Of a stretch of DNA of 64,000 nt, positions 11,014-62,260 are shown piece after piece. Origin of the DNA: Amphiscolops sp. MND2022 (taxonomy: Eukaryota). Both the position numbers and the translations under genes were made by a program. Below the pieces are notes generated by a model. That model was not told the DNA's origin, ran no database searches, and worked only from the letters and a program-made list of their open reading frames with translations. The stretch is from assembly GCA_964187785.1 (NCBI GenBank), contig OZ076409.1:54624001-54688000 (forward strand), given 5' to 3'. The stretch's first letter is position 1. Each line of letters starts with the position of its first letter.

Positions 11014-11016
11014 GTT

Positions 11017-12771
11017 TTACTCTGTTTGCACAATCAAGTGCTTGCTCATGACCAAGTGAGTATCTTCTTCCAAACCTTGCTCTGTATCCATGAGGAGGGT
11101 TTCTGATCGGAAGTCTTGCCAGCCATTGTCTACAACGAACGTTTCCGGCCAGTTCCACACCCATTCTGCGATTAGATTTTCAGAGAATCCTTTGTTTGCA
11201 TTGTTTTCAACAATTGTCACAATTGAGTCTTCTTGTGCTTCACATTTGATAGTTTTGTCTTGCAACTTTCCATGGTTTGGACACTTGTCTGAACACTTCA
11301 TCTGGTCAGGTTTCCAATTTTTCATTGTACACTTTCCTTTTGTTGTCCAGTCAAGAGTTTTGAGCAAAAGCATTTCTTCTTGCTTGCCCAAAAGTTCGTC
11401 TTTTCTTTTCAACGATTCATGGCGACCACTTGAACTTTCTTTGCTCGAAGTATGCCTTGGTTGAGTTTGCTTTACAATTGTCAGAGTTGAACTACTTTCA
11501 ACGCTTTCACGGTTCGAGCGCCAAGGTGATCCAACAATGCTCTTTGAATCAATTCGCCCAAAACAGGGCTCTTTGTTGTTTCTCAGGTGTGACTCCTTGT
11601 CCGTCACTTTGTGTCTGTCTTGCCAGGAGTGAGCGTTTTGCTCACGCAGTTCATGTCCTGTAGCAGGATTTGTTGAGGTCGAGATTGCCTTGAAGGTCCG
11701 ATAACATTCCTGCGGACCTTTGCATGGTTGCAACTGCTTTGTCACTTTCTGTGATTGTGTCGGTCTCAGCCGAGTTCCATTTCGCGCTAATTCTTTTTCT
11801 TGGTTGGCAACTTGTTTAGTCCTCGCGCTTTCTTCTTCGAGCCTAGAAATTTCGTGTTTTTCTGTGAGGGTATCAATTTCATTTTGCTTCTTTCGCATTT
11901 CGGCTTTGCGTCGTCCGGCAGCTAGCTGTTCATCAATTTCATCTTGTTTCTTCATTGCTTCCAGTTCTAGAAGAATTATTCGTTTTGCATTTGATGACTT
12001 AGAACTAGCTGTTGTTCGGTTGCTCTTTGAGGTTGCTTTGACTGACCAGTTGTTGCTTTGTTCGTGTAACACTTTCACATCACTGGTTGATTTAGTCACA
12101 TCAGAGGTGTCGGATGCTCCATCAACCTGTCGTTCTTCATCAGTTACCCTGCTTGACTGTGCCAGTGATTTATTTTCACTAGTTGCTTCTACTAAGCAAT
12201 TTTGTTTCGTTGGATCGAAGCTACTTTGCTTGAGCTTCCTTGTGTAAGGGCATCTCATTGCCGCGTTTGTAGAGATTTCACTTGCCATTTGCCGAATTTT
12301 CGTTTTGCTTGTCTCGTCTTTTGGACCCTTCAACATTGTCTTTACATCAGGGAACCAATATCCCCAATTGGCTTCTAATTGTGCAAAGAGTGCTTTCCAT
12401 TCAGTCACACTTCGACTGAGCTGTCTTTTCTTTTCTTTATTTGTAAGGTCCAACATAAGATCTACGTTATGCAACATTGCTTGTTTGTTTTCGCAATATT
12501 CGAATACCCAATCATTCATTTTACCTTTGCAAAGACTAGCGCATTGCTCGTCAAGCTTGTCATCCAAGTCTTTAATCAGAGTCCGTAGTCGTCCAATTTG
12601 GGTGGCCACAGTGTCCACACTAAAGCGCCACACATACCAATCTGAATCATTTTCCAAATCTCTTGATCTGAGTTCCATCAGTTCTTGACTCTGCTTTGTG
12701 TTTTTTCTATCGAATACAGTTGTCATTCGAGGATGCTGCACTTCGAACATTTCTTTCTTTCTGGCTTTCAT
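11017..12771 (-). CDS. 584-aa Gag-like coiled-coil protein of the BEL/Pao-like element
   Basis: Long open frame downstream of the PBS. Ser-rich stretch followed by a charged helix (SSKSSNAKRIILLELEAMKKQDE) as in BEL Gag N-termini. Confidence 0.6.
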   Translation of the reverse strand: MKARKKEMFEVQHPRMTTVFDRKNTKQSQELMELRSRDLENDSDWYVWRFSVDTVATQIGRLRTLIKDLDDKLDEQCASLCKGKMNDWVFEYCENKQAMLHNVDLMLDLTNKEKKRQLSRSVTEWKALFAQLEANWGYWFPDVKTMLKGPKDETSKTKIRQMASEISTNAAMRCPYTRKLKQSSFDPTKQNCLVEATSENKSLAQSSRVTDEERQVDGASDTSDVTKSTSDVKVLHEQSNNWSVKATSKSNRTTASSKSSNAKRIILLELEAMKKQDEIDEQLAAGRRKAEMRKKQNEIDTLTEKHEISRLEEESARTKQVANQEKELARNGTRLRPTQSQKVTKQLQPCKGPQECYRTFKAISTSTNPATGHELREQNAHSWQDRHKVTDKESHLRNNKEPCFGRIDSKSIVGSPWRSNRESVESSSTLTIVKQTQPRHTSSKESSSGRHESLKRKDELLGKQEEMLLLKTLDWTTKGKCTMKNWKPDQMKCSDKCPNHGKLQDKTIKCEAQEDSIVTIVENNANKGFSENLIAEWVWNWPETFVVDNGWQDFRSETLLMDTEQGLEEDTHLVMSKHLIVQTE

Positions 12772-13685
12772 TTGTTCAGATTGCAGTTTATTGTTTAACT
12801 GAGGGCTTTCTGACTACACAATAGTTTCTTGTCGACTTTGTCACTTTTCCCAAACTCAGCAATTTGTTAGATCCGAAATGTCAACTGCTCAACCCAATAT
12901 TCAATTGCCAATTCTTGAAGAATCAACCCAAAATGTCGATTATGCTTGCCTTCTTTGACAGACTTGATTGTTTCGGTGGACCTCGTCCCAATGACTCGAT
13001 CCCTCTGCTTTACTCGGTGGATATACTTGCAGCGACGTCTTAGTTCAATCCTTTGCTTTCAATTAGGAATACGTTTACCAAGGATACTATTCGTCCCAAA
13101 ACTGGAATTGAAGCACAGCTGCCTCCAGAGTGCTGCTAAAGCCCAACTCCCAGAGTACACAACCAATCCAGTTCCAAATCGCCCAATAGTCCAATACCAA
13201 AGCCCCAGTGTACACTTTCCCAGAGTTCCAATCACCAACTGTAGACCCACTCTCCACAGTTCTTGTTGATCGTGAATAGTTGTTTCATCTACTTGTCGCG
13301 ATTCCGTTCGAATGCGACGACTCTTGCAATACCTTTCGATTGCTGTGCGAACAGGATCACCTGATGCCACTTCTAGGTTTGGAAGGTCCCTACATATAGG
13401 CTTGTCCTCCCAGCTCTCTGGTTTGCCACAGAAACCAGCACGGAAGCTCTCTCCAAGCTTCGTGTCACTTGAACAGATAGATGTTGTGTCACCCGTTTGA
13501 TGACTCTACTGCTCACGTGTCTTCCACCACGAATGCTATCCACACACGATGAAGACGACGTTCCTCTTGTAGTGTCCACCCAGAATGATGTCCACTCCAA
13601 CTGTTGATGTCCGCCCAATGTGATGATGTCCGCCTCAAACTGAAGATGTCCGGCCAAATGATGATGTCCGGGTCGGCGGACCAAA

Positions 13686-17014: not shown

Positions 17015-18254
17015 AAGAACCAACCAGAGACATGATTTTGGTTTTTCGATTTTTTTGTACAATAATAAGTAATGATTGCTCCCAAATGGAACAAAATGAT
17101 CCAGTCCTATGTTTTTGAGGGGCTATTCAGATGCATTAAAACGCCTGACCTCAGGAAAGCTCTGGAAGGTTGCTGTAACAGACTCAAAATTGTTGAAAAA
17201 GTCGAAACTAATACCCCTGCTTATTGCCATTATTTAATCCGCAAACCTGATACCCAACTTTACAGGCCTTATCACTCACCATGATTTCAACGAACAAGGA
17301 TTTGAGCTCAAGGAACACTAACGCGGGATTTATTGCACCGAGAGCGGAATCAAGATCGGGGTAATAAAAACCTCATTTAGTCCATCACCCTAGCAAAAAA
17401 TGAACCATATGAAATCAAACCGCTCACGGTATCATTTTACCAGTTCAAACTTTAATATGACCAGCTCTTCATGGCCTAAAATGAAGCTTTTGAAGGTATT
17501 GTATCGATATTGTTTCATTTGATGTACACTGATAAAGTGAGTTTTTTTTGGTAAATAATCCATTTGCGACAATTTATTATAAAACTCCTGTACACGCTTC
17601 GCAAGGAATGGTTGAACTTCCTGTTGCTTCCAAGAACCAACCAGAGACATGATTTTGGTTTTTCGATTTTTTTGTACAATAATAAGTAATGATTGCTCCC
17701 AAATGGAACAAAATGATCCAGTCCTATGTTTTTGAGGGGCTATTCAGATGCATTAAAACGCCTGACCTCAGGAAAGCTCTGGAAGGTTGCTGTAACAGAC
17801 TCAAAATTGTTGAAAAAGTCGAAACTAATACCCCTGCTTATTGCCATTATTTAATCCGCAAACCTGATACCCAACTTTACAGGCCTTATCACTCACCATG
17901 ATTTCAACGAACAAGGATTTGAGCTCAAGGAACACTAACGCGGGATTTATTGCACCGAGAGCGGAATCAAGATCGGGGTAATAAAAACCTCATTTAGTCC
18001 ATCACCCTAGCAAAAAATGAACCATATGAAATCAAACCGCTCACGGTATCATTTTACCAGTTCAAACTTTAATATGACCAGCTCTTCATGGCCTAAAATG
18101 AAGCTTTTGAAGGTATTGTATCGATATTGTTTCATTTGATGTACACTGATAAAGTGAGTTTTTTTTGGTAAATAATCCATTTGCGACAATTTATTATAAA
18201 ACTCCTGTACACGCTTCGCAAGGAATGGTTGAACTTCCTGTTGCTTCCAAGAAC
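17015..18254. repeat. 617-bp tandem duplication
   Basis: Identical ORFs at 17072 and 17689 (offset 617). AAGAAC microhomology at 17015, 17632 and 18249. Confidence 0.95.
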
Positions 18255-19708: not shown

Positions 19709-21099
19709 ACAAGAAATTCTAAAGCTAATTTGTTGTGATCGTGCACATTGAAAAACAAAGAAAATATTCATCTCAAAATAACCTTGACTTTTTATGAAAT
19801 GGACCTTCATTTTTGAGTTTGTGTTGATAGATCTGAAAGATCGCACAAAAGAACAAAATCTCTCTGATAACTTATACTAATTAAACGTCGATTTAAAACA
19901 TGAGCATAAGCAGGGTAGTCTGCAATATTTATTGCAGCTGAAATTTCCTATTTTAAGCTGATTGTCAGAGCAGCTGTTTTCAAAAAACTCGAAAAAGTAA
20001 AAATTGTAATTTGATATGAATTATTGAAAAGTATAAATGATTTCAAAACCTTTGTTTCTGCGTGCCTCACTCGAAAATTTGTTCCTGGATAAATATTTCC
20101 CCTGTAATAGCCAGACATACATGTTTGTATGTTCACCGAAATGGTTGACTTTTTTGTTGACAGTAGCTAAATTATTTGGAGAGTGTTTTATAAAGTCAGT
20201 TTCATGTATGGACTCATGAAGATCATATCTATTTTTAGGTAAAAAGATTTCCGTTTAATATAATTAATTAATCTTGATTTCAATTTTATTGTTACTAAAG
20301 AAAGTAATTCTAAAATAGTATTTTACTTTTGTCAGTATTATAGGTTTCAATTGTAAAATAAATGAGATTCACTCAAGCCTGTGAAAAGTTATCATAATTT
20401 CGAAGGTTTTGTTAAAAGATACAAAAATGAATAACATCTTCAAAATTTGCTACTCGTGATGCATTCTTTCTACACTTTTTTAAATTCCGTTGCTGGTTTA
20501 GTTGAAAGAATTTTTTCCAACAGAAATGACTCACGTTTCCGTTTAATTCTAGGGTTCTTTTCTGTTTCTTCTTTTTGCATTCAAAAATTTTGGAGGTGTG
20601 GGGGCAGAAAAGACCCTATTATAGACATTTTACTTTATGCGTTTCTTTAAAAAAATATTACTACAAAATATTCGACTTGAAAATTTGTTTTTGGAGCAGA
20701 ACCAGATTTTAGATCTGAGAAGTTGGATTGTTCTTATTTGTTTCGGAAAATCTTAAAATAAATTGTTAAAACCTTTTTATCCTAACAGACGATTATTTCC
20801 TTTCCTATGGATCAACAGTTCCTGGAAAAACTTTATTTCATTTCGTATAATATAGAAGATATCCTTGAAAATGGTTGTCACAATCAATAACATACAAGAT
20901 TTATGTTCAGTTCAATATGCTGAAAATGCCCTTCCTTTAGCTCAATATGCTGAAACGTTACATTATTAATTTTGAATAGTCAAGATGCTTTTGCTAAATA
21001 TACAAAAAATCTCACTGATTTGTACATTGTTGATAACAAACACCTCTATTCAATTTTTTTCTAGGCTTTAAAGTAAAACGTAAAATCTGTATTCAATTC

Positions 21100-24103: not shown

Positions 24104-24619
24104 CTGTAACAAAACACCACTCTTTTAAACAATTTTCACCTAGAATGAAAACGGTACAGAAAATGATTTCTGATGTTTTATCAATAATTAGCCACTCAAT
24201 CGTGACATGCATTATCATTTTTCACAACAAATGTATGTGAAGATGTTATTTTCATAGGAGATGCCAGCTGTATGTATGAAAAAAGATTCACTCCGATCGA
24301 AACACTGGCCTAGTTCAAATTCAGATACAGAAACTTATACAGAGTTACAGAATACAAAGTCACGACTGCCTTTCATTTCATTTAGTTGAAGGCATTCAAA
24401 AAGTCTTATTGAAGTCATTGGGAGTAGTAAGCGAAATGCCGATTCGGGCCAAGCAACAAAAATTTTCAAAAGCCCCAAAACCTCCCTTTTAGAGGCATTT
24501 TTCCAAAAACAAATCAACAAATTAGTGATTTTACAAATCTGTAACCTCTATGGTGTGTGTGTAAAAGCAATGCAATGTAAAAGCAGTGCAATGTAAACAA
24601 CTGGCGTGGACATAAATTT

Positions 24620-24716
24620 GGTTCCAATGGCTCAGTGGTTAGGCCACTGGAATTTTACGTTCGCGCAGCTTCACCCTCCTAACACACGTGTTCGAGTCCG
24701 CGACAAAGCATATTTT
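24620..24716 (+). promoter_or_regulatory. tRNA-like Pol III A/B-box cassette in left TIR (mirrored at ~35580-35680)
   Basis: TGGCTCAGTGG at 24628-24638, GTTCGAGTCC at 24690-24699, TTTT at 24713-24716. Confidence 0.55.
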
Positions 24717-25006
24717 AATTTCACCAATAGTGGTTGGGGGTATATAAGGAAGTTAGTATATTATTTTTACTGACAAGTTACTCATTGCTTAAAAATATTT
24801 GTCATCCTTTCCTCCGCTTTCGAGCAGTATTGGCAATAGTAACGTGAGCTTTACCAGGACACACTTTCGGGAGGGGAAAAGATTGTGTGTTACATAAACT
24901 GGAGCTCTATAGTGAATTAACCAGTGGGAGGTAAAATCCTATGTAGTTAACTTGCGAGCGGGGGACGTCTGTAGCACATCGAATATAGTGTCGGTCGATG
25001 GAAACC

Positions 25007-25105
25007 GCGTTAAACTTTCGCGTTAAGCTTTCGCGTTAAGCTTTTGCGTTAAGCTTTCGCGTTAAGCTTTTGCGTTAAGCTTTCGCGTTAAGCTTTTGCG
25101 TTAAG
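25007..25105 (+). repeat. 13-bp tandem repeat GCGTTAAGCTTT(C/T), ~7.6 copies
   Basis: Read directly. Mirrored as ~5.6 copies at 35246-35318. Confidence 0.95.
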
Positions 25106-25222
25106 ATAAGTTGCCTAATATCTCAACGGGAAACGATTTTTGAGAAAAACGTCAGGAACAAAAGTTATAGAGTATTCACACATAACAATGAAAAATAACT
25201 ACCTATTAATCAATTATTTGTC

Positions 25223-25532
25223 ATGTCAATATCTCTCAATCAAAGAATTTGTTGAAAAATATGGATTAAAAAAAAAAGAAACAAGAGTTTAATTGTATAT
25301 GATCAAACAATAAATGGGGAAGGATTGGGTGACTTCTTTAAATATTTGGGTTCTGCAACCAAAAACGTTGGAAAGAAAATACTCAATAATCCAGGCCGCG
25401 CATTGGAAATAGCAGCAAATATTGGAACTGTAGCAGCAATTAGAGAATCCAAAATTCATTGCTGCAACAGCCGCCGACGTTATTAAATTTGTTCATCAAG
25501 GAAAGCGTTTGTATTTGGGTAAAATTCATTAG
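25223..25532 (+). pseudogene. Small Polinton virion-type protein with an amphipathic helix (frameshifted)
   Basis: YDQTINGEGLGDFFKYLGSATKNVGKKILNNPGRALEIAANIG..FVHQGKRLYLGKIH*. Absent from the ORF track because of frameshifts. Confidence 0.55.
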
Positions 25533-25545
25533 GTATATTTAATAA

Positions 25546-26547
25546 ATGTATTCAATTCATAATAGGGATGACTTGGAAAAAAAATTACAAGATACAAAAT
25601 CTTTACTACACAGAGAAAGATTAAAAGAGAAACTAGGGAAGCAAGACTTTTAATACGATATGGAAGAAGTTATTGAACCCATAACAGAAAACCAGAAACA
25701 AAACCAAACTAAACAAAAAGAACTTTCCGAAAAGCAAATACAAGCACTACGTGATTCTACTCAAACTACAACACAAGCAATCGAAAATCAGACAAGAGCA
25801 ATAGAACACAGTAGTGATATTTTAAATAAGAATTTACAAAAATCTATTAAAGAAGGAATACAAGAATATGGTGAAATTACAAAACGTAATAATAAGCTCC
25901 TTACAAATCTTGTTAATTCCAACCAAGTTGATTCTAGTATTATAAAGACAGTTTCCAAGCTTCTTAACACCAAAAGTCAATTTAGTTTAAAACCCACAAA
26001 AGGTTATCCAAATTTATTCACATTTAATCCCCATAACCCACAACAAGTGCTAATCAAAGGTTCAACGATGACTTTCGAGAATGGACATTCATACGATCTT
26101 AGTGACCCAGATTTTCAATATTTTATAACTAATACACAATTTGATATAGAAATAAATAACCTGGACACAATTTATAGTTTTTTAATTGATATCAAATATA
26201 ACATAAATTATGGGGATAAAAAATCAACGAGATATTATTTTATTAAAGAGTTGTACTCTCGCTATCATTGGGGTAATACTATCGACAACAAACAATTGCA
26301 GGGCTTCGCAGGAAGCGGATTACACAGCTACACACAGGGCTCCACACAACAGTATAATTTCCTCCCATCTGATCCAAATGAGTTTGTGGATCAATAAAAA
26401 CTACTTTATTTTGAAAAAGTAGGAGGAAATGACAGTTTTCTACTCAATGAACAAATCATAGCAATTGTAGGTAAACTCTTTGAGTATGAATGCATAACAC
26501 CTTCTCAACACCAAAATATGCGAAGTATGTTAAGTACGCAACCTTGA
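25546..26547 (+). pseudogene. Polinton-type hypothetical protein (two in-frame stops)
   Basis: One frame from ATG 25546 with TAA at 25651 and 26395. Coiled N-terminus and C-terminal LPSDPNEFVDQ*KLL..GGND..NEQIIAIV motif of a kind seen in Polinton ORFs. Confidence 0.6.
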
Positions 26548-27646
26548 AATTGATCCGTATGTGTATTAAAGATCTTGTAATTTGGATAAGATTCATTACA
26601 CACCTGGTTTTTACTCCCATTTTTATCTTCCAATCTATTTATTATTAAGTAGTTGTAATTTTCTTTCCACGCCTCTCTGCACAACTCGTTGAATTCATCA
26701 TGAGACATATCAAAACCTGCTATATCTCTGTATATGTGTTCTATATCTTTCAAGGTTTGTTGAAGTAAAATTATTATATTCGACATGTTTCTAATTGTTC
26801 TTTTGGGTAACTCGAAGTAACTCTGACTTAGGTAAAAAACATCACACAAGTTGTGTCTTCCTCTAGTAAAAAATGGATCTTTTAATTTCTGATTGGAGTC
26901 TAGCATATCATCAAACACAACACAACAATTTAGAGAATCTTGAATATTTTTATCACCTAAATCTTTTTCCACTACCAGTCCCAAATCCCCGACATCCAGT
27001 TTCATCTTGCTCCCCACATCTTCATACTGTTCAGGACTTCTCGTAATGATATGTAATGATATGTTTTTCACTATCACACAATCGAATTAATTGTAATTTG
27101 TTTAATAAAAAAGTGAGTTTTACCACAAAGTGATTGGCAAACTATTAATATACTATAATGCTGTAATACATCATTATCAACTTCATTGGGAGCGCCGTTG
27201 GCGATAGCTTCCGCGGCATCTTTGGTAGCACATTTAATAACACATTTCAAAGAATCTTTGATATTAATAGATTGTTCATAACGAAGCCCTTGTGCGTAGC
27301 TCTGCGCGGAGCCCTGGCGATGGCCCTGTGTGTAGCCTTGCGCGTAGCTCTGCGCGTAGCTCTGCAAGTGCTGCTTCTTAATATGAGACCTTAAACAACT
27401 TTTATTTAATTCCTCATTACAAAATTCACACCTCACCTTCTTATTAAAACATTCTATACATGTACTGTACATTTTACCGTTTTTATACCTATAAAAAATT
27501 GAATTGGAATCTGTCTTCATTTTATTACACTCTTTACATCTTTTTTTATTACTACAATCATCACATAAAGATTTTTCACTACTTTCATTACAAATTAAGC
27601 ACTTCTCTCTAAGTGTTTCTCTAAGAATCACGTCTTTAAGAATCAC
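26505..27646 (-). pseudogene. A32/FtsK-like packaging ATPase 1 with N-terminal Cys/His zinc-finger region
   Basis: Degenerate Walker A ILIVCQSLCGKT, Walker B CVVFDD, TRGRH, LSQSY, IRNM. Five CxxC pairs upstream. Split by a T-run frameshift and a 10-bp duplication near 27050-27115. Confidence 0.85.
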
Positions 27647-27892
27647 GAAATTCCTCTAAACTTCTCTCAGAATCACTAAATTAAATCTCTAAAAATCTCT
27701 ACAAAACTCTATGTGTCTTAAAACTCTCTAAATTTCTCTTAGAGCATGATTTAGAGAAAAATAGAGGACTCTTAGAGATTCTTAGAGAAATTAGTGAATC
27801 TCAAAAAATCTCCAAGAATCTCTAAATTCCTCTAAGAATCTCATCACTAAGAATCACTAAGAATCTCTAAATTCCTCTAAACTTCTCTAAAT
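27603..27892. repeat. Low-complexity CTCTAA/CTAAGAATC repeat block with an internal inverted segment
   Basis: Motif repeats on the + strand except at ~27739-27798, where it reads TTAGAG. Confidence 0.75.
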
Positions 27893-27928
27893 CAATAAAA
27901 TTTTTTAAAACTTTTTTTAAATGTTTTT

Positions 27929-28189
27929 CTAATGTTTCGCTAATTTCGCTAATTTTCTCTGAGCATTATTCAGTTTATTTTCAGTAAAATTTTTCGCATG
28001 ATCATAAAGAAACTTCTTGAAGTCCTCTTTAAGTTCATTTGAAGTCAGTGGTTGTTGCATGCGCTGTCCGTTATTGTCTATTTTGGATTCATTCACTTTT
28101 ATTTTGATTTGTTTACAATACTCCACATAATAAAAAGCTACGTTGTACGGTGTTATTTCAATTGTCTGGTCAGACATCTCCTCTAACAC
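27929..28189 (-). CDS. Polinton hypothetical protein (86 aa)
   Basis: Open frame co-oriented with, and abutting, ATPase 2. Confidence 0.45.
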   Translation of the reverse strand: MLEEMSDQTIEITPYNVAFYYVEYCKQIKIKVNESKIDNNGQRMQQPLTSNELKEDFKKFLYDHAKNFTENKLNNAQRKLAKLAKH

Positions 28190-29079
28190 ACCTTCATTTT
28201 GTTGTATTCCTCACCACTGAAAAAGTAACTTTCATAAGCAACGTAATCCTCTGGATCCCAATTATTCTGTTTGCTAGAATCATAAATTAAATTGTACTTG
28301 TGATTTAATACCTTGTATTTCTGACTCCTTGTGTCAAATTCAAATTTACCAAAGTCTAACTGATCGCGGAAGTATTTCCACCTAAGAAGGAAACCAGGAT
28401 CTTTAATTGAATAAGTTTGTACAATCGACTCGAAAAAGGTATCTGAGTTATTAATTGTTAAGTATATTTTAAACAATTTTCTCTTACAACTGGGAGAACA
28501 TCCTTTGCATAGTGAGCGAGATAAATTACTACTATACCATGACGTCTACCGAACCTATATAAATCATCCACTTTCGTTTTGAGACTCTTGTCTGCAGCTG
28601 CATCATCCAGTATTACCGTTTTATTAGCAAGTGATTCAATGCCTATTTTTTCTAACTGTAACAAGGGTACAAAATTGGAAGCATGAAACTCATTTTCGTC
28701 TCGTCCGAATACTAAATAATCACGTTTTTTTTTGCGTTAGCTGTCGCGTGGAGCCCTGCAGTCTGTGTTAAATAATGCTTCAAAAAGGATGTCTTCCCTG
28801 ACCCACTACTACCATAAATTAAAAAGTGAGGGTTAGTATTTTCATATTTTCAATCGTTGGAGCAAGTTGTTGATTTTGCGAAGTGCCTACGGCAGCCCCA
28901 TTGCGATGAGAGTATTTGAACCCTTTGAGTTGTAAAAATTTTCTATAATTTTTTTTGTACCATCTAGGTTGCAAATTTTTCCAATATATTACAATAGCAA
29001 TAAATATAAATAAAATTATGCATACAATAAACATTGCGTAGCTTCGCACGGAGCCCTGCGGATTTATGTGATTCCACAT
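28183..29079 (-). pseudogene. A32/FtsK-like ATPase 2, probably with an N-terminal transmembrane helix (frameshifted)
   Basis: PHFLIYGSSGSGKTSFL (~28830-28780), KTVILDDA, FGRRHGI, VVRENC. The overlapping upstream ORF has MFIVCIILFIFIAIVIYW and joins via a 1-nt shift near 28848. Confidence 0.75.
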
Positions 29080-29168
29080 CCTCTGATACCAATATCTAGT
29101 GTTTTACCCGCATCATCATTATTCAAGCAATAATCATTATTCATCTATTTAGAAAAACATTGTTATAA

Positions 29169-29911
29169 ATGAACCTAAAACAACAAATCACTGAAGAAAT
29201 ATTCTCTCCTGTAATCAAAAACTTTCAAAGAATTCAAATACAAACACACTATAAAGATGAATATTGGAGTATCGATTTAATTGATCGATCAAGTTTAAGC
29301 AAATACAACAAAAACTACAAGTTTATTTTTACAATAATTGACAGTCATACTAAATATGCATGGGCGATTCCTCTTAAAGATGAGTCCGGAAAAAGTACAA
29401 CAACTGCATTCAAGAAACTCATTGAAAATGAAAAGAGAAAACCACAAAAAGTGTGGAGTGATAGAGGTAAAGAGTTTTACAACCAGACATATTTACACTA
29501 TTAAAACGAGCAAAATATTCAAATTCATTCAACCAATTCAGATTTGAAGGCTGTTTTTGTTGAACGTTTCAATAGAACACTTTTGGACCTAGTTAAGGAA
29601 CCAATGAATATTGAAGGTAAAGGTAACTGGCTGAATCACCTTGATGCTGCTTTACAAAAGTATAACAATTGTGTCCATGGTACAATAAAAATGACACCAT
29701 TTGAAAAGAGTTTTTGTGCAGCTTCGCGCGCAGCCTCGCAGAGTGCAATACCCAATAATCATAATAATAAAGTGCCCAAGTTCCGCGCAGCTTCGCGCGC
29801 AGCTTCGCTCAAATTCCCGAAGTTCCAAGTAGGGGATTTTGTAAGAGTTCCTGACAAAAGGAACATTTATTCAAAAGGTTATACAACAAATTGGAATAGA
29901 GAACTTTTTAA
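29169..29911 (+). pseudogene. Polinton retroviral-like (rve/DDE) integrase with one in-frame stop, C-terminus deleted
   Basis: WSIDLID, IIDSHTKYAWAIPLK, WSDRGKEF, VERFNRTL, KFQVGDFVRV..KGYTTNW. TAA at 29502-29504. Confidence 0.9.
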
Positions 29912-29913
29912 AT

Positions 29914-30824
29914 TTGCACCCAATTTGTTTAATGTATAAACTTTTAACTAGTAGTCAACAAACTTCCCAATGGATGTACGGGTTTGAAGAAAGTACTACT
30001 ATCAGAAGACAAGAAGTAACAAACAATAAGACAGAGAAAGGAACCTTTTTTGTGAGAATAAAACTAAAAGACGTGTTTGGATTTGCTGATCAAGAAAAAG
30101 TAACTTATGGATTGGGCTACACTCTTACTTTAAAACGGAATAATAGTAAAGATGTTATCATAAGAGGTGCTGGAGTGGATGTTGCAAAAGTAAATGTGAA
30201 AGACATTTCTTGGTATATTCCACACTATGTAGCAAACTTAGAAAACCAACAACTTGTCCTTAATCAAATATTAAATAAAGACCCAACCGAGTTGTACCAC
30301 ACCGAACGTACTGTTTTTAGAAAAGATGTTAACACCAATAACAATTGGACATTTGAGGTAGGCACTTCAGGAAGATCAACACCAACTTTTGTGATTGTTG
30401 GATTCCAAGGTAGATTTCAAATTGATTCACAAACACACGATAATGCAACATTTGATAGAGCTTCGGTTAGTAATGCTGTTTGTAAAATAGGATCAGAAAA
30501 ATATCCCGATGATCGAATAGAATGTGACTACGACCGCGACAAATATGATCAAGCATACAGTAATTCGAGAACTTTTATATCTTACACTCTGAGTGTAATC
30601 AACCCAACCCATTTATTGATTTGCACAAATTCAGAAAAAGTTATACTTTTTATGTATTCGATTTATCCAAACAAAAAGACCAAATAGCTTCTCAACCAAT
30701 CAGATTATAATTTAAAATTAATGCTGCTTTTGGTGTAGCAGACTATATAGCTTATGCCTTAGTTCTGACCCCAGTACTAATAAGTATTAGTAGTGATGGA
30801 CAAAGGCATTTTGATTTAATATGA
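29914..30824 (+). pseudogene. Polinton major capsid protein (double jelly-roll), N-terminus lost, frameshifted
   Basis: IKLKDVFGFAD..YGLGYTLTLKR, ISWYIPHY, PTFVIVGFQ, FDR..IGSEKYP, FDLSKQ..AYALVL..DGQRHFDLI*. Confidence 0.8.
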
Positions 30825-31020
30825 TAATCAATGATAATCAATGATAATAAATATAAAACGCGTAGCTTCACGCAGCTTCACGCAATAATAATAAAGTATT
30901 TATTTTTATTAATCATACTTTGTAATAATGATGATAGTATGATTAGATTCGCAATCATAAAAGATGTGTGTCACAATAAATGGGCCCGATCACTTATCAG
31001 ATTTAAAAGAACTTGATGAT

Positions 31021-33604
31021 TCAATTTTTTTTCAGAGTCCAAATGTTATAGTATATTTCTTCATCCCGGAGGGGTTTGCCATCCGTTTTACTTCTGCTCA
31101 ATTCTTTATAATACAAACCGAGTAATTTCAAACAGTACATACAAGGACAATCGCTTTTCTGGGTGTGCTTATCCCATAATAAATTTTGTACTGGATTTAT
31201 GTACACACGCTTGTCATCAAAAGGATTCAAAGCTAGTTTGTTTTGTTTCTCCACACTTAGTTTGTGTAAATTAGATCTAATTGAATAATTTGTTGCACTT
31301 GTTGTTTCGGACATAAACAAACAACGTGTGTAATCTTCACATTCAGGGGCGTTTTGTATTCCTTTTGTCTCGCTTTTTGAATACTATTATAACTAAAAGA
31401 ATACGATTTTGATCGTAAAGCTGTGGAGCTATATAACACCAAAACTGGACTTGTTTCAGTTTTCATTTTTCCTATAACTTTTTTGTTGGTTGGGTTGTAC
31501 AGTTGATGAGCATTGTCTCGTTCACTGAAATCAAATTCATTTTTATTTTGTTTTAAAGATCCAAATAAAATTTTCCAACTGACTGTCAAAACTAAGAACA
31601 AAAGAATCTGTATCCATGTAGTGAAGTTGTACTTTATTTTGTCAGTGTGGTTTTAAAGTATTGTAATAAAATTCATACATTAGTAACTAACTTAGTTCTA
31701 AAACTGTAAAACCTAAATAAATTGGTCTATCAAAGACTGTTTTTTCTTTATCAAACTTGTACACACTAAACACACTGTACCAATTCACAATACCTTTGAA
31801 ACTTAACGTGGATTGTCTTTTTATCATTTGCTGTATTTGAGAATGATCAAGGGATTCTAGATTAACACGGTCTCTTACATTTCTCATAGTCTTACCGAAG
31901 AAAGCATTATTCAATAATTTGGACAAATCTTTTTCGAAGTTTGCTTTTGCTTTGGTGCGTTTTTGGGTGTTATGGTCAGTGTATTTTGCTAACCATGGAC
32001 TTTGCTTGAAGCGGTAGATTGTATGAATATGTGTTACTTTCATCCCCATTTTAGTGTAAAACTTGAACATCCTGTAGTGTATCATATTTTTTTGTTGTTT
32101 GTTAGGTCACACACAAGTTTCTGGGTTGGTTTGTAGTTGGGTTGTTTTACACTATTCATATAATTTGAGAAACACTCTGGATCTGCTTTGCTTTGATAAG
32201 GACAAAGAGGAAAGTTTTCTGTTTTTTCTTTAATTTCTGCTGGATATTCTAAATCACATTCTATGAAGAATCCATATGTGTTGTTGTCTGGAATAAATCT
32301 CACATCGTCTACTGTTTGTTCTAGTTCATACTGTTGTGGAAAGTGTAGTTTTTCAAATGTGCCTGTAGGAAGGTATCGACTCATTGCCCATCCATATAGA
32401 GTATTAGCGTCGATGTACAAGATTTGTTTGTTTTCGTTTGATTCAACAAATCGATCACCCATAACACTTGAAATTCTTCCACGTATGTTATTTTCCAATA
32501 ACAGAAACAAGTGTTCATCTTTTATAAAGTCGAACTTGATATTAGTCAACTTCAATCCAGCTTTCCATGTATACCCAGGAGCTGAGAAGGAGTACAATGG
32601 ATTGATGCCATACTCTTCAGTGGATGTTTCCACAAAGTTCTCAAAGATATCACTTAGTTGAAGGACATCCATTTTTAAGTATAACATAGTTGTTGAGGTG
32701 TTGTAATGTTGTGTTTGTCAATTAATTGTTGGGTTCTTTTTATATCATCATCACACGGGTAAGATTGTGTTAATAACTTGATGTTCTATTTTAGATCCTC
32801 AACGAGACAAAGGTGTGCTAGGAGGCACCATAAAAAATAATATTGATCATCTTTTTTTATATTTATAATTGATTTATTATTCTTATATTTTCCTGGCAAC
32901 TGAATGTATGAAGAAGCTTGAATATCATTGACTTTATATATTTCTTATATAACATTGACAATACCGTTCAACACAAACCCTGATCCTTCTAATTGTTCAT
33001 CATCTAATTTCTGCATTAATGTGCTGTGAGTTGTATGATTAGTACCGAAGGTGCTTTGCATGTGATTATAATTAAACTCTGATTTAACCCATTTGTGAAA
33101 TACATTTTCTTCTTCATTAACTATTTTTGAAAACTTAGCTAAATAACTCAATTGATATTTAATCGGGGAATGAAATTTTTATCTGGTAATAAATTTATGT
33201 GATGTTCGAGATTTTCCGAAGCTGTGCCAGTTGGATTCACTCTCAGTTTAATGTATGTTTTTTCATTCACAATTACTTCTACTCCATTACCGAAGGTGTT
33301 TTGTGTGCTTCGTGTATCTTGACTAATTTGGTTGTTTTGACTTCTTAACGTGTGAATTTCACTTTGGAAATGTCTTGTTTTATCACTAATGTATTTACCA
33401 CAATCTTCACACCAAATGTGTTGTTGTTTGGTTTTGTTCTTGTGTTAGTCTGAACTTAAATGATTTGACTTGTCTGATAGGGGCATAAATAATTACATTT
33501 TTTACAATAATATTGATTTAATGTTTCTAAATGTTTCACTAATTTTAGATGATCAGACTTGAAAGTTTTTTTATAATCAGAATTACAAATACTACTGTTC
33601 CCAT
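31021..33604 (-). pseudogene. Protein-primed family B DNA polymerase with Cys/His-rich N-terminus; exonuclease region deleted
   Basis: YLKMDVLQLSDIFENF, YIDANTLYGWAM, KLLNNAFFGKT, LHYMDTDSF (~31600-31630), LNPFDDKR. Several frameshifts. Confidence 0.92.
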
Positions 33605-33775
33605 ATTTTTTATATAATAAATTTACGAATTTAATAGCAGTATATTTTTCAATAGTATATTTTTCAAATAATGAGTGGTAGTTTTTATTTTACTTTATAT
33701 GTTAAAAGTAGTGTCTTTTCAATTAATGAGTGTTAATTTTCATTTTACTTTTCATGTTAAAATTGAACAAATTAA

Positions 33776-34360
33776 TTATAAAAAATTGTATGGCTTATGC
33801 GATGTCAGTGTTGCAGTCGGTGTTATTGTATAGCGTAGCTTCGCACGCTTGTTTGTAAACATATTTTGCGTTTGATAATTTTCATACATGTTCACGAATT
33901 GGTGATATTCTTTTTCATCTATGTGATTATCTTTTAAGCTAGTGGTAATTATTTGTTTAAAGTCATCAAGTGTCTTCTGAATAATAGCGTACTTAAGTTT
34001 ATAATTTTGCTTCTTTTTCTTCAAATAACTGGAACAAATTTTAACAAGAATACCAGTTGCACAACCAACTCCTGCAGTGATTGGAACAACTATAATTCCC
34101 ACACCAGTAATACTTCGTATAACAGATGCTGAAGTTGTTCCTATTATTATAAGACCATCTGTCGAGGTAATTAGGTTATTTATTGGCTTGCATTTGAAGT
34201 ATTTCTTATATTTCTTTTCTTCCAATTCATAATATTTCATCATTAGACTAATGTTTTGAATAGAATTATTGAAACTAGATACCTTTGCTAAATGCTTATT
34301 TATCATTGATTCTATATCGCTATTTAAATAGGGCGCGGAAGGATATTGTTTTTGTTCCAT
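33776..34360 (-). CDS. Polinton 194-aa protein with an N-terminal PSAP motif and hydrophobic hairpin
   Basis: Intact ORF. YPSAP at residues 6-10 and GLIIIGTTSASVIRSITGVGIIVVPITAGVGCATGILV between basic helices. Confidence 0.7.
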   Translation of the reverse strand: MEQKQYPSAPYLNSDIESMINKHLAKVSSFNNSIQNISLMMKYYELEEKKYKKYFKCKPINNLITSTDGLIIIGTTSASVIRSITGVGIIVVPITAGVGCATGILVKICSSYLKKKKQNYKLKYAIIQKTLDDFKQIITTSLKDNHIDEKEYHQFVNMYENYQTQNMFTNKRAKLRYTITPTATLTSHKPYNFL

Positions 34361-34528
34361 TTATATCCAAATAAGAACACATTTTGTTCATTCATATAAA
34401 ATGAAATTTATTTCCGTTGGTGTTTATTTCATTCTGTGTTTCATATCGACAAGGTCTTTATAGGAATCTTTTTTCAATGACTTCAAAATACTTTCTCTGG
34501 TAGCAGATTGTGAATCAGACAGACAATA

Positions 34529-34992
34529 TTAACCATCTGAAGTAGGTATTGTTTTTCCATACTTTTCCAAGAGATGTGTTTCACTGAAAGTAAGATGATT
34601 TGCAAAAGCTTGATCTTTATTGGGAAAAGAATCGAATAAACCTTTGTCATGGAGCAGTTGAATTATGTTCTTAGTTATAGTAATTTTATTTTGATCTAGG
34701 CTATTAAGAATATTATTTATTTCATTTTCATTTAAAATCATTCCAGCTTGACCCGGAGTTGACATAAACTTTAAGTTACGGACTGTTAACATTGAAAACT
34801 ATTGTTGTGTATTAAATTTAGTACTTCACTTACTAAAGTAGTTCTTAGTTCGGCGAAAGGTTTTTCCATATTTTGTTCTAACTTATTTATGGTTTTTGAA
34901 AGGTCTGAAAACTGGGAATAAATATCTTTGATTAATTTTGTCTTTAATAAAACATTTTGAACTTCCTGTGAGTCTAGTATTTGGTCTAGCAT
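34529..34992 (-). CDS. Two small Polinton hypothetical ORFs (68 and 87 aa), possibly fragments
   Basis: ORF track; co-oriented and tightly packed inside the element. Confidence 0.35.
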
Positions 34993-35210
34993 TTTTTTCT
35001 ATCAATTTCTCTTAATTTTCTGATAAATCTTCAAAATCTTCTTTTAATTTGGAATGGGTTGTTTGGGCTATCTTTTCTTGACTTTTTATTATATCTTTTA
35101 GCTCCTGATATTCTCTCAGTTTTAGCTGTTCACTAGAATAACCAAACTTATGAAGAGACGGAGTTTCCTACATCTATTAAGATGAAAAAGTTTAATGAAA
35201 GGGTGTCGAG

Positions 35211-35874
35211 AAAGTCGTTTCCCGTTGAGATATTAGGCAAGTTATCTTAACGCAAAAGCTTAACGCGAAAGCTTAACGCAAAAGCTTAACGCGAATGCTT
35301 AACGCGAAAGTTTAACGCATGTGCTACAGACGTCCACCGCTCGCAAATTAACTACACAGGATTTTACCTCCCACTGGTTAATTCACTTTAGAGCTCCAGT
35401 TTATGTAACACACAATCGTTTCCCCTCCCGAAAGTGTGTCCTGGTGAAGCTCACGTTACTATTGTCAATACTGCTCGAAAGCGGAGGAAAGGATGACAAA
35501 TATTTTTAAGCAATGAGTAACTTGTCAGTAAAAATAATATACTAACTTCCTTATATACCCCCATCCACTAATGGTGAAATTAAAATATGCTTTGTCGCGG
35601 ACTCGAACACGTGTGTTAGGAGTGTGAAGCTGCGCGAACGTAAAATTCCAGTGGCCTAACCACTGAGCCATTGGAACCAAATTTATGTCCACGCCAGTTG
35701 TTTACCTTGCACTGCTTTTACATTGCATTGCTTTTACACACACACCACAGAGGTTAGAGATTGGTAAAACACTAATTTGTTGATTTGTTCTTGGAAAAAT
35801 GCCTCTAAAAGGAGGGTTTTGGGGCTTTTGAAATTTTTTGTTGCTTGGCCCGAATCGGCATTTCGCTTACTATT
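35211..35874 (-). repeat. Right TIR of Polinton (~664 bp)
   Basis: Reverse complement of 24423-25139. Confidence 0.95.
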
Positions 35875-36594
35875 ATTGGGGTTAGGTTTGTATTCACACG
35901 ACAACAAAATTGATTTCGTTTTTTTTTCGTTTTTCGAAAAACAATATCAGAAACCTTTAATACAATTTTTCTGGAATTTTTTCTGACAATTTCGGCTTGA
36001 TAATTATAGAAAAAAGTCACACAGTGCAATGGGAATTTTTAGGCTTGATAAACGTTTTTTTTTGGAAATTGACAGGAGAAAAACTGAAAGGGGTGAAATG
36101 AAATTTTGGTGAAAATAAAAAGTCGCACATTACGAAAAAAAAACTTTTTATACGTTAATGTTTACAAACGAAGCCTTCAAGTCCTCGTCACTGATCGAAC
36201 CGACGGCTGTCTGTTTTGGAGCGCGCACGGCTACTGGCAACATGAACGAACTGTATCCAAAAAGTGGTCGCTACGCATATATTTGGCGCTCTGACATATG
36301 TGGCGGTCTACGCATATTTACTCACAGAATGCGCCGATTATAAATCAGTAGGTTTTATTTTAAACCCATGGCTCTAAGTTATATTGTAAGTGTCAACCTG
36401 TTGCGATTGAGTTTAAAATGGTGAGCAACAACTAGGTTATGAAACAATGTGAATGAAAGTTTTTGGTCGTTTCATACGAACGTATTCTGATGAAGGCTTT
36501 CGAGTGTCAAAGGTTCCAGTATTACCTTAAATTCTCGACAGGGTTTGTTTTACTTGGAGCGTTTTTGATTTTCTGAATGCGTGACCATACAAAC

Positions 36595-42082: not shown

Positions 42083-42660
42083 TAGTCGGCGCATTTTACC
42101 AAAATGAGCCCGACTATTACAGTGGCAAGTTTTTTTCTTTTTTTCGTCAGGTATCAGAATGTATGCGCAGTGGACACTTTTTCTACAGAACTACTAAACT
42201 ACTGGACCGGCAGGCGGAAACGCATTTAAGTTAGTGCAAAGGGTCTCCCCTTTCGAATACTCAATTTTTAACGTAAGATACAAAACCGGAAGGGACTACA
42301 GGGTCCCCCCGTTGAATTTTTTCGGCACTGTGCGACTTTTTTTGCGAAATTTTTCTGTCGGCAAAGGGTCCCTCCTTCAAGTTTTTTTAATATTTTACAG
42401 CAAACTGTAGTTTCAAAAAGCCCAAAGGGTGTCCCCTTTCTAGTTTTTAGGCACTATGAGACTTTCAAAATTCTCATTTTTCGTTTTTTTTCCGAAAATT
42501 TTTTCAAAAAGTTTTTCGAATTTTTAAATGTCTCCAAAAGGTCCCCCGTTTAATTTTTTGATATTTTGCAACAAACTAGATTTTCAAAAAGTCGAAAGGG
42601 TCCCCCTTTTACATTTTTGAAAACCTTGCGCTTTTTGAGCCTCAGATATAGCGCCGATTT
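42083..42660 (-). mobile_element. HINE/DINE-1-like element (longer subfamily) on the minus strand
   Basis: TAGTCGGCGC..GCCCGACTA hairpin at the left and GAGCCTCAGATATAGCGCCGA at the right. Internal AAAGGGTCCCC repeats. Confidence 0.65.
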
Positions 42661-45600
42661 ATATCATTTTTTATCATTTTAATATCATTTTAAAATTGAC
42701 TTTCATTTAAAACATGACTATGTCAATGCAACAAGCGGGTGTCTTCAAAAATGGATGTCTTCAAAAGCTCGGAAAAAGCTGCATTTTCAAGTTGGCTAAG
42801 ACGATGTTTTTAATTATTGAATGCATACCTTCATTTGGTCAAAAGTTGTTCTATTAGGCTTTAAGTAGGTCATGATAAAAATCAAGCACTTTTGATTGTT
42901 TCACTTCATTTTCTTTTTGTTTAAAAATGATAAATGACGTAGTTCTGCATGGCGAACGTTGTTTTAATCCCAGAGAGGACCCTCAAATTTTGAGCAAGCA
43001 CATTTCCTTGGATATTGTAACCACCTTTGATTGATTGCATGTGTTGCATATCAACACAGCACGTTCGGGTTATAGATACTGTAACTATTCTGTAATTTCA
43101 ACGGCTACACTCATCACTTGATACCTTCTCCGTTTCGCAATAACGTTGACCAAAATAGAAATATGTGGCTAGTTTGTATATACTTACCTCAGCAGCTGAT
43201 TGACAATCGATGAAACACTTTGAGAAATCCTTGCATTGAAGAAATTATTTGAGCATTCGCACTTAATGAAAATTGGATCCTTAGAAAAATGAGTTTCAAA
43301 AAGCTAGTGTTGAATTTTCAAGTTCTTCGGCTGACAATGGAAATTTTAACAAGCCGGGAACGGTCCCTTTTCTAGTTTTTAGGCACTATGAAACTTTCAA
43401 AATTCTCATTTTTTTTGTTTTTTTTTCCGAAAATTTTTTTTTCGAATTTTTAAATGTCTCCAAAGGGTCCCCCGTTTAATTTTTTGATATTTTGCAACAA
43501 ACTAGATTTTCAGAAAGTCGAAAGGGTCCCCCTTTTACATTTTTGAAAACCGTGCGCTTTTTGAGCCTCAGATATAGCGCCGATTTTAGACGTTCCCGTC
43601 TTGTTTCCTTCTATGTTGGAACTGAGTGGTAACCATGTGGAATGTTTAATATCATTTCAAAATTGACTTTCATTTAAAACATGACTATGTCCATGCAACA
43701 AGCGGGTGTCTTCAAAAATGGATGTCTTCAAAAGCTCGGAAAAAGCTGCATTTTCAAGTTGGCCAAGACGATGTTTTTAATTATTGAATGCATACCTTCA
43801 TTTGGTCAAAAGTTGTTCTATTAGGCTTTAAGTAGGTCATGATAAAAATCAAGCACTTTTGATTGTTTCACTTCATTTTCTTTTTGTTTAAAAATGATAA
43901 ATGACGTAGTTCTGCATGGCGAACGTTGTTTTAATCCCAGAGAGGACCCTCAAATTTTGAGCAAGCACATTTCCTTGGATATTGTAACCACCTTTGATTG
44001 ATTGCATGTGTTGCATATCAACACAGCACATTCGGGTTTTAGATACTGTAACTATTCTGTAATTTCAACGGCTACACTCATCACTTGATACCTTCTTCGT
44101 TTCGCAATAACGTTGACCAAAATAGAAATATGTGGCTAGTTTGTATATACTTACCTCAGCAGCTGATTGACAATCGATGAAACACTTTGAGAAATCCTTG
44201 CATTGAAGAAGTTATTTGAGCACTCGCACTTAATGAAAATTGGATCCTTAGAAAAATGAGTTTCAAAAAGCTAGTGTTGAAATTTCAAGTTCTTCGGCTG
44301 ACAATGGAAATTTCAACAAGCCGGGAACGGTCCCCTTTCTAGTTTTTAGGCACTATGAGACTTTCAAAATTCTCATTTTTCGTTTTTTTTCCGAAAATTT
44401 TTTCAAAAAGTTTTTCGAATTTTTAAATGTCTCCAAAGGGTCCCCCGTTTAATTTTTTGATATTTTGCAACAAACTAGATTTTCAAAAAGTCGAAAGGGT
44501 CCCCCTTTTACATTTTTGAAAACCTTGCGCTTTTTGAGCCTCAGATATAGCGCCGATTTTAGACGTTCCCGTCTTGTTTCCTTCTATGTTGGAACTGAGT
44601 GGTAACCATGTGGAATGTTTAATATCATTTTAAAATTGACTTTCATTTAAAACATGGCTATGTCCATGCAACAAGCGGGTGTCTTCAAAAATGGATGTCT
44701 TCAAAAGCTCGGAAAGAGCTGCATTTTCAAGTTGGCCAAGACGATGTTTTTAATTATTGAATGCAGACCTTCATTTGGTCAAAAGTTGTTCTATTAGGCT
44801 TTAAGTAGGTCATGATAAAAATCAAGCACTTTTGATTGTTTCACTTCATTTCCTTTTTGTTTAAAAATGATAAATGACGTAGTTCTGCATGGCGAACGTT
44901 GTTTTAATCCCAGAGAGGACCCTCAAATTTTGAGCAGGCACATTTCTTTGGATATTGTAACCACCTTTGATTGATTGCATGTGTTGCATATCAACACAGC
45001 ACAAAAATGGATGTCTTCAAAAGCTCGGAAAATGCTGCATTTTCAAGTTGGCCAAGACGATGTTTTTAATTATTGAATGCATACCTTCATTTGGTCAAAA
45101 GTTGTACTATTAGGCTTTAAGTAGGTCATGATAAAAATCAAGCACTTTTGATTGTTTCACTTCATTTTCTTTTTGTTTAAAAATGATAAATGACGTAGTT
45201 CTGCATGGCGAACGTTGTTTTAATCCCAGAGAGGATCCTCAAATTTTGAGCAAGCACATTTCCTTGGATATTGTAACCACCTTTGATTGATTGCATGTGT
45301 TGCATATCAACACAGCACAAAAATGGATGTCTTCAAAAGCTCGGAAAAAGCTGCATTTTCAAGTTGGCCATAACGATGTTTTTAATTATTGAATGCATAC
45401 CTTCATTTGGTCAAAAGTTGTTCTATTAGGCTTTAAGTAGGTCATGATAAAAATCAAGCACTTTTGATTGTTTCACTTCATTTTCTTTTTGTTTAAAAAT
45501 GATAAATGACGTAGTTCTGCATGGCGGACGTTGTTTTAATCCGAGAGAGGACCCTCAAATTTTGAGCAAGCACATTTCCTTGGATATTGTAACCACCTTT

Positions 45601-62000: not shown

Positions 62001-62260
62001 TTTGCTGAAGAACTTCAAAATCGGACAAAACTCCCTATTGACAAAACGAAACAAAATAGTATGCAATCCTACCTTAAATATAAGGAGTATTAAGACCGCA
62101 AAGCGAGAGTGGCTCCACTCGAGGAGAACGAATATTATTTTGTTTCACAGCCGAGAGCTGATCACCAAGGGTGAAAAATCCCACTTAGGGATTACCGTTG
62201 GGTTAGACCATTTGTAGTGCAAAAATATTAACTAACGAAAATTAAATAGTACGCCGACTC
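56053..62260 (+). mobile_element. Decayed Ty3/Gypsy gag-pol (LTR boundaries unresolved)
   Basis: Gag (FDGKSESFELFEDLF, degenerate CCHC knuckles), PR (LIDTGA), RT (LKCSQAYH, QNVDD), RNase H, IN (HRHPG..CEQC, IDVFSR). Many frameshifts. Confidence 0.88.

Follow-up and report, generated by a model that had tools for sequence, protein, structure and literature searches.

The stretch analyzed here, hereafter the window, comprises 64,000 nucleotides of contig OZ076409.1 from Amphiscolops sp. MND2022 (GCA_964187785.1, positions 54,624,001 to 54,688,000 of the forward strand). It harbors a decayed Polinton/Maverick copy encoding two dissimilar ATPases, one fused to a zinc-finger domain (ATPase 1) and one with a predicted N-terminal membrane helix (ATPase 2) (table 1). 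The copy displays the features by which such elements are recognized: long terminal inverted repeats (TIRs; arms of about 700 bp, 94–97% complementary), AGTAGT-type ends, a 6-bp target site duplication, an rve integrase, a DNA polymerase B of the protein-primed type (pPolB), and a double jelly-roll (DJR) capsid gene. A motif with AGT twice is described at Polinton ends in the available text of PMC8097293.

Both ATPase genes are co-oriented, as a sequence-only reading of the window had described, and lie on the minus strand; the motifs given in that reading were all recovered. For ATPase 1, five CxxC pairs are in frame with a Walker A-like motif, and VVFDD and RGRH are present. The gene itself is not intact. 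Walker A falls in one and Walker B in the other of the two frames between which it is split, stop codons follow its first part, and its Walker A is degenerate relative to the sister copies. The annotated open reading frame (ORF) has its first ATG downstream of three of the five CxxC pairs. The ATPase 2 motifs GSSGSGKT, VILDD, and GRRH are spread with the rest of the gene over five frame segments, so that its Walker A and Walker B are mutually out of frame. The strongly hydrophobic helix (Kyte–Doolittle 3.1) is located in the ORF 29079–28819, as proposed. The two genes had been thought to be separated by a repeat block and a small ORF. The repeat block was found, but the ORF (28177–27929) is not a gene of its own, as its sequence matches the final 75 residues of the sister-copy ATPase 2. 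The two ATPase genes are therefore adjacent, with only the repeat block between them, and the gap measures 306–431 bp in the 14 loci measured.

We searched the host genome (1.07 Gb) for sister copies. The ATPase 2 piece gave 1380 candidate places and the ATPase 1 piece 1972; the 150 places scored for each all matched, and these figures are lower bounds, not copy numbers. Our sample of 40 sister loci corresponds to every third row, from 22 to 139, of the ATPase 2 search and is conditioned on the presence of the Walker B part of ATPase 2. The two-ATPase arrangement recurs, whole or partial, at all 40 loci, and its occurrence in the window is therefore not due to chance. The gene order is kept: the integrase is head to head with ATPase 2 at 39 loci, the zinc domain is found at 39, and the ATPase 1 core at 38. 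According to motif-based frame counts, the helix, Walker A, and Walker B of ATPase 2 share one frame at 22 of the 40 loci, and a single frame extends from the helix to the C-terminus at 19. The zinc motifs and the Walker A of ATPase 1 are in one frame at 31 loci. Both genes are uninterrupted at 14, the others being broken at varied places. The proposed fusion of the membrane helix to ATPase 2 thus exists in natural sister copies.

Ratios of nonsynonymous to synonymous substitution rates (dN/dS), pooled over non-independent pairs and descriptive only, are 0.29 for the core, 0.22 for the C-terminus, and 0.56 for the helix region of ATPase 2. For ATPase 1 they are 0.33 in the zinc domain, 0.85 in the linker, and 0.29 in the core, and the core genes taken for comparison gave 0.25 (integrase) and 0.29 (capsid). 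Judged from these ratios and from the open frames, both ATPase genes are real and under purifying selection. One might suspect an artifact, the hydrophobic ORF being separate and ATPase 2 a decaying captured fragment, as the window copy is broken into five frames and one subfamily does without ATPase 2 (see below). The chance of this is negligible: it is refuted by the single-frame sister copies, by the dN/dS values, and by full-length distant homologs of the same architecture, helix included. The sequence-only reading had named three outcomes that would speak against it, namely a separate hydrophobic ORF, an ATPase 2 lacking an FtsK/HerA fold, and a captured fragment absent from sister copies. 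None of the three was found for the window's Polinton family.

Sister frames of both ATPases pass the cut-off of the Pfam family Pox_A32 (PF04665), with 29.1 and 23.4 bits for a threshold of 22.8. As a consequence, Polinton trees and counts that rely on the ATPase can combine two paralogs separated by a deep split. The two proteins are 23% identical over 107 residues, and their profiles align with a probability of 97.6% over 117 columns (hhalign). In the available text of PMC11703096, the FtsK/HerA class is defined by a Walker A, a Walker B, an arginine finger, and a polar sensor that is mostly Gln; viral members are mostly bare motor domains, those with transmembrane domains being from filamentous phages. 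The sister frames of ATPase 1 possess the Walker A, the Walker B, the arginine finger motif, the Gln sensor, and a RecA-like fold. ATPase 2 has kept Walker A, Walker B (DD in 20 of 21 rows), the arginine motif, and a second Arg. At the sensor position, all 21 ATPase 2 rows have His versus Gln in all six soluble ATPases; hhalign aligns this His with the Gln of ATPase 1, and the sensor is still polar. The T7 gp4 helicase is a precedent for a His sensor.

The AlphaFold models of ATPase 2 and ATPase 1 have predicted local distance difference test scores of 76 and 68. As the sequence-only reading anticipated, the ATPase 2 model matches an FtsK/HerA-type fold. Its best match in the PDB is the packaging NTPase B204 of Sulfolobus turreted icosahedral virus 2 (STIV2; Foldseek E 5.6e-7), which is also the top structural match of ATPase 1. 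In a wide structure search with ATPase 2, covering model residues 108–303, B204 ranked first (Z score 15.5, root-mean-square deviation 2.7, 167 residues), followed by VirB4, HerA, TcpA, FtsK, and Zot. Scores of ATPase 2 stayed under the cut-offs of the Pfam profiles FtsK_SpoIIIE (13–17 bits for 24) and TrwB_AAD_bind (12.6–17.2 bits for 20.5), and a PDB sequence search gave P-loop-level matches only. An Atlas comparison placed ATPase 2 among Preplasmiviricota ATPase clusters (0.91–0.92) and ATPase 1 near A32 clusters; two lower-scoring zinc-finger clusters (0.83–0.86) are leads only. By profile, language model, and structure, the best matches of ATPase 2 are thus viral DNA-packaging ATPases. 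Its layout consists of a predicted signal-anchor helix, aromatic and basic residues, a spacer of 35–70 residues, the motor, and a C-terminal helical extension of ~110 residues. With its predicted N-terminal membrane helix, it is not a stand-alone soluble motor domain, unlike the A32 proteins of viruses whose genome is double-stranded DNA (dsDNA).

A profile search with ATPase 2 returned 297 proteins at E up to 0.001, of which the best 150 were listed, mostly fragments. Among the matches listed we hand-picked 31 longer, more distant homologs (23–47% identity). A hydrophobic helix precedes Walker A in 26 of them; of the other five, four start too near Walker A to hold a helix and one has a weak one. 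When 27 motor domains were placed in a tree, a long branch (Shimodaira–Hasegawa-like approximate likelihood ratio test [SH-aLRT] 97, no outgroup) set all 21 ATPase 2 rows apart, and ATPase 2 is, on this topology, an old clade of its own. One named homolog among the matches listed is a chromosomal protein of Mactra antiquata, present at two near-identical loci (KAL4240361.1 and KAL4224295.1) and annotated without the N-terminal helix. For one distant subfamily of ATPase 2 (P0291), the host genome contains nothing close (best 29–37% identity). No relatives were detected in IMG/VR scans with ATPase 2, ATPase 1, or the capsid of the metagenomic contig L061 described below, nor in a prokaryote genome scan or a phage tblastn search.

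A metagenome scan with ATPase 2 recovered four loci, of which L061 and L063 are close kin. The 9.1-kb contig L061 encodes a capsid-like protein (weak match to Pfam Capsid_N, E 0.0018), a pPolB, the membrane ATPase, a CxxC ORF, and four small ORFs. It also encodes a separate soluble A32 ATPase of 209 amino acids (49 bits), four genes away from the membrane ATPase. This soluble ATPase is remote from ATPase 1 (hhalign probability 31%), the capsid of L061 has no detectable similarity to that of the window family (blastp E 0.08), and the pPolB of this contig is ~38% identical to either of the two polymerase types of the host Polintons. A pair of ATPases is therefore found in two or more distant lineages, and the soluble partner differs between them. 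The idea that ATPase 2 tracks the polymerase type was considered and received no support, the pPolB of L061 being equally distant from both local types. In all four metagenome loci (two of them close kin), a multi-CxxC ORF directly adjoins the membrane ATPase, and these ORFs align with the zinc domain of ATPase 1 at nine invariant columns (no E-value). Separately, a database protein of 531 amino acids (P0360) unites in one chain a CxxC module, a domain of the ATPase 1 type, and the conserved ORF whose window copy is tail to tail with ATPase 1.

ATPase 1 is present in every subfamily seen, and ATPase 2 lies upstream in 29 of the 30 top ATPase 1 matches (window included), the exception being a deleted copy that also lacks the capsid gene. 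An ATPase 1 frame of 273 codons occurs in about 56 of the 150 ATPase 1 rows scored. ATPase 2 is present in none of eight picked loci of this type versus 12 of 12 other loci. It was still absent from these eight after extension to 20 kb each, and blastn revealed no remnant of it there. The copies without ATPase 2 are young (pPolB 96–99.6% identical) and keep the capsid and the integrase; their ATPase 1 still has a zinc domain, though a shorter one. They share with the carriers the capsid (81%) and ATPase 1 (72–76%) genes, and have a different polymerase, ~50% identical and in the other orientation. Comparable polymerase swaps are described for nematode Polintons in the available text of bioRxiv 2023.08.22.554363. 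In the ATPase 1 tree, the subfamily nests among carriers (SH-aLRT 99), but a single clade of carriers is still allowed by an approximately unbiased test (p 0.16). The absence of ATPase 2 by loss rather than gain is favored by these data, not shown. ATPase 2 is dispensable in this sister subfamily, and the two genes are not always inherited together. As side observations, elements of this subfamily (L105–L112 with L125–L132) measure ~15.4 kb where the ends were seen (three of seven pairs), with an extra CxxC ORF and weak terminal repeats. A 51-bp tandem lies between their integrase and ATPase 1 in 2–24 copies.

The block between the two ATPases contains three to eight TCTTAG cores at all 40 carrier loci, with a mean of 4.85 versus 0.09 per 470 bp elsewhere. 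At the loci without ATPase 2, all four counted have 22–34 cores, amplified as the 51-bp tandem. The block thus stays with ATPase 1 in carriers and noncarriers. It is possibly a conserved cis element, and could be a promoter or a packaging signal.

These data bear on the two roles envisaged for the ATPases by the sequence-only reading, a heteromeric motor or a second motor repurposed for DNA translocation across a membrane. The heteromeric motor is weakened in its obligate form: one young sister subfamily retains the ATPase 1, capsid, and integrase genes while lacking ATPase 2, and in an unrelated element the partner of ATPase 2 is a soluble ATPase of another kind. In an optional form, ATPase 1 would bind the genome through its zinc fingers and dock on, or coassemble with, membrane-anchored ATPase 2. 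The adjacency and common orientation of the genes at 38 of the 40 ATPase 2 loci and the ATPase 2 neighbor of nearly all top ATPase 1 matches point in this direction. So does the multi-CxxC ORF adjoining the membrane ATPase: given its alignment to the zinc domain of ATPase 1, such a zinc module may serve ATPase 2 as a DNA adaptor. However, paired-CxxC ORFs are common in Polinton-type elements according to the available text of PMC8502044, and L061 and L063 are close kin. Moreover, the prolific subfamily without ATPase 2 keeps the zinc domain on ATPase 1, and the soluble ATPase of L061 belongs to a different type and is four genes removed from the membrane ATPase. ATPase 1 and ATPase 2 each have the full catalytic set, and neither therefore resembles a dedicated noncatalytic subunit. 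We consider such a coupled motor unlikely.

The second of the two envisaged roles fits best: ATPase 1 is likely the core genome-packaging motor and ATPase 2 an accessory, likely membrane-tethered DNA motor separate from it. As ATPase 2 is kept in distant relatives but missing from an abundant sister family, it is likely an optional device. We tentatively propose, at a little short of an even chance, that a separate ATPase 2 ring tethers the DNA of the element at a membrane, or pumps it there, in support of an optional mode of spread. The zinc fingers of ATPase 1 would recognize element DNA, perhaps the repeat block, and ATPase 1 would fill capsids. ATPase 2 would insert in a membrane of the host or of the virion, its motor facing the cytosol or the nucleus, form its own ring, and hydrolyze ATP with His in place of the sensor Gln. 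It could then feed element DNA to or through the membrane, like FtsK, conjugative coupling proteins, and filamentous-phage gp1. The route so served could be, for example, a membrane-containing particle or passage between compartments, and would not be copying within the genome.

Two other functions were weighed. ATPase 2 could be a membrane-bound coupling or remodeling motor for proteins or particles, of the VirB4/EccC type, moving for instance capsids or accessory membrane proteins during crossing or budding rather than DNA. VirB4 (Z score 14.4) and EccC/EssC (Z scores 11–12) follow the DNA pumps closely, the C-terminal extension is strongly constrained, and the changed sensor residue marks a specialized clade. 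This is quite unlikely, since the top matches by three methods are DNA-packaging ATPases and the adjoining zinc-finger ORFs suggest DNA handling. Alternatively, a membrane-tethered A32 paralog could be an interference factor that captures or poisons the packaging motor or the DNA of rival Polintons or of a coinfecting large DNA virus. Its patchy accessory distribution and its movement between unrelated elements would fit, and some Polinton-like viruses are thought to parasitize large viruses (PMC11296320, available text). Yet the catalytic motifs are intact and conserved, and ATPase 2 has the same substitution rates as core genes, whereas a conflict gene would be expected to evolve fast and a decoy to be dead. 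Interference is also quite unlikely.

Several points weigh against the proposal of an ATPase 2 ring moving DNA at a membrane. The transmembrane segment is predicted from hydropathy and from the helix in the model, the helix region is less constrained than the rest of ATPase 2, and the charges flanking the helix favor a cytosolic motor only weakly (clear in two of four frames). Motors of the FtsK/HerA fold that move proteins, VirB4 and EccC, rank nearly as high in the structure search. The subfamily without ATPase 2 could use the protein in trans from hundreds of copies, or could spread with neither ATPase. Both ATPases were found together at just one distant locus, the other three contigs being too short. 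Finally, no Polinton virion has been seen so far (bioRxiv 10.64898/2026.06.19.733378, available text). A broader version is unlikely: in several animal Polinton lineages, a mobile module made of a single-pass His-sensor A32 motor and a multi-CxxC DNA-binding partner would pump the genome of the element through a eukaryotic membrane, in the manner of bacterial conjugative coupling proteins or of inovirus gp1. If true, it would mean a second, membrane-based exit from the nucleus or the cell beside capsid packaging. As to how Polintons exit the cell and move between animal hosts, a conserved, apparently membrane-anchored second A32 motor hints at a membrane step in some of them. With subfamilies with and without ATPase 2, the host genome offers a natural comparison.

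The remaining features of the window copy are listed in table 1. For pPolB, a sister frame has 38% identity to a protein with the Pfam domain DNA_pol_B_2; the window pieces by themselves gave no Pfam match. Two sister-copy ORFs, candidates by their motifs for a minor capsid protein (without Pfam match) and a protease, have no match in the window copy. Both TIRs include a 13-bp tandem, CGCGTTAAGCTTT, with 7.7 copies at 25006–25105 and 5.7 at 35246–35319. The start codons of the integrase and ATPase 2 face apart with 23–34 bp between them at 13 of the 16 loci with a value (29144–29169 in the window), so that their promoters must overlap the neighboring gene or lie far off.

Table 1. Features of the Polinton/Maverick copy, in window coordinates
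Feature	Position	Strand	Remarks
Decayed Polinton/Maverick copy, AGTAGT-type ends	24423..35874		11,452 bp; inverted repeats and ends read
Target site duplication ATTGGG, left copy	24417..24422	+	6 bp
Target site duplication ATTGGG, right copy	35875..35880	+	6 bp
Left TIR	24423..25140		Contains 13-bp tandem array
Right TIR	35211..35874		
Conserved ORF, broken	25546..26526	+	No Pfam family; tail to tail with ATPase 1
ATPase 1, C-terminal part: Walker B, GRH arginine motif, Gln sensor	26553..27056	-	68% identity to residues 195–356 of sister-copy frame
ATPase 1, N-terminal part: five CxxC pairs ending in C2H2-like finger, low-complexity linker, degenerate Walker A	27089..27601	-	
Repeat block with TCTTAG cores, preceding ATPase 1	27610..27900		7 cores
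ATPase 2, C-terminal helical extension	27929..28186	-	72–74% identity to last 75 residues of sister frames
ATPase 2, motor domain end	28189..28509	-	
ATPase 2, Walker B, arginine motif, His at sensor position	28464..28733	-	
ATPase 2, Walker A segment	28718..28837	-	
ATPase 2, N-terminus: predicted single transmembrane helix, then aromatic and basic residues	28831..29144	-	
rve integrase, broken, C-terminally shortened, head to head with ATPase 2	29169..29939	+	Pfam rve E 1.4e-10
DJR major capsid gene, broken, without first ~100 codons	29896..30821	+	Pfam DJR-like_dom E 6.5e-13
pPolB, many pieces	30974..33599	-	tblastn to sister frames
Two more conserved element ORFs, one with long hydrophobic stretch	33779..35173	-	

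Other observations concern the sister loci and the rest of the window. Tandem internal duplications of several kilobases occur at four sister loci (L031, L034, L052, and L055) and include one or both ATPases in three. The motif GCTTCGC/GCGAAGC, presumably of the mini-hairpin type, was counted 412 times in 400 kb of sister loci (L021–L060) versus seven times in 52.5 kb of window flank. Six occurrences were found in 80 kb of the family without ATPase 2, and in the window the motif is located at 26303, 29041, 29721–29808, and 33838. GC-rich repeats within reading frames give low-complexity linkers. Older, more decayed Polinton remnants with polymerase-, capsid-, and integrase-like matches (30–45% identity) are present at 1574–2499 and 4993–5328 (+) and at 19846–20473 (-). 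Outside the element, the window also contains a 316-bp satellite in eight copies (44686–47241), a ~970-bp triple repeat (42431–44917), and a 617-bp duplication (17015–17931). Decayed frames at 49888–51601 (-), 56630–62776 (+), and 10153–12813 (-) are, judging by their motifs, probably long terminal repeat retrotransposon-like.

Polinton core gene sets list one packaging ATPase in the available text of PMC8715426, PMC8097293, and PMC8502044. One packaging ATPase is also mentioned in that of PMC11071308, PMC12721341, and PMC10328495 and of bioRxiv 2023.10.06.561300, 2024.03.25.586562, 2023.08.22.554363, and 10.64898/2026.06.19.733378. Our literature search, with Repbase, subscription papers, figures, and supplements outside it, turned up no report of a Polinton ATPase that is a second one or is anchored in a membrane, and the word "transmembrane" is absent from the available text of the Polinton papers searched for it. 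Compared with the canonical Polinton of these texts, the window family has two ATPases, ~23% identical, in a standard Polinton context as for canonical A32 ATPases. Both share with the A32 ATPase of Polintons and adintoviruses (PF04665) the Pfam family, Walker A, Walker B, and the arginine motif, and ATPase 1 also the Gln sensor. They differ from it by the predicted membrane helix, His sensor, and C-terminal extension of ATPase 2 and by the N-terminal zinc-finger domain of ATPase 1.

The closest structure to both models, B204 of STIV/STIV2 (PDB 4kfr), comes from a virus family with an inner membrane. It differs by its chains of ~200 residues restricted to the motor domain, by an identity of 14–18%, and by the lack of an anchor in the part that was matched. 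In bacteria, gp1 of filamentous phages exports the single-stranded DNA of the phage, and the gp1 helix comes after the ATPase domain. In ATPase 2, unlike gp1, the helix precedes the motor, and the protein belongs to an animal dsDNA element with another ATPase. Gp1/Zot is nevertheless a virus-encoded ATPase of the FtsK/HerA type with a transmembrane domain (PMC11703096, available text), and the Zot N-domain matches the ATPase 2 model at a Z score of 12.4. FtsK/SpoIIIE, as described in the same text, and the coupling proteins TrwB and TcpA have, like ATPase 2, an N-terminal membrane part, a linker, and a C-terminal motor (Z scores 11–13). Unlike FtsK, TrwB, and TcpA, ATPase 2 has a single predicted helix, a much shorter motor, and Pfam scores below the cut-offs. 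Giant viruses also carry more than one A32-like gene per virus, and two entries of Medusavirus stheno labeled A32-like occupy ranks 1 and 4 among the matches. In contrast to these viruses with large genomes, an element of ~15 kb gives about 1.2 kb to its second ATPase gene.

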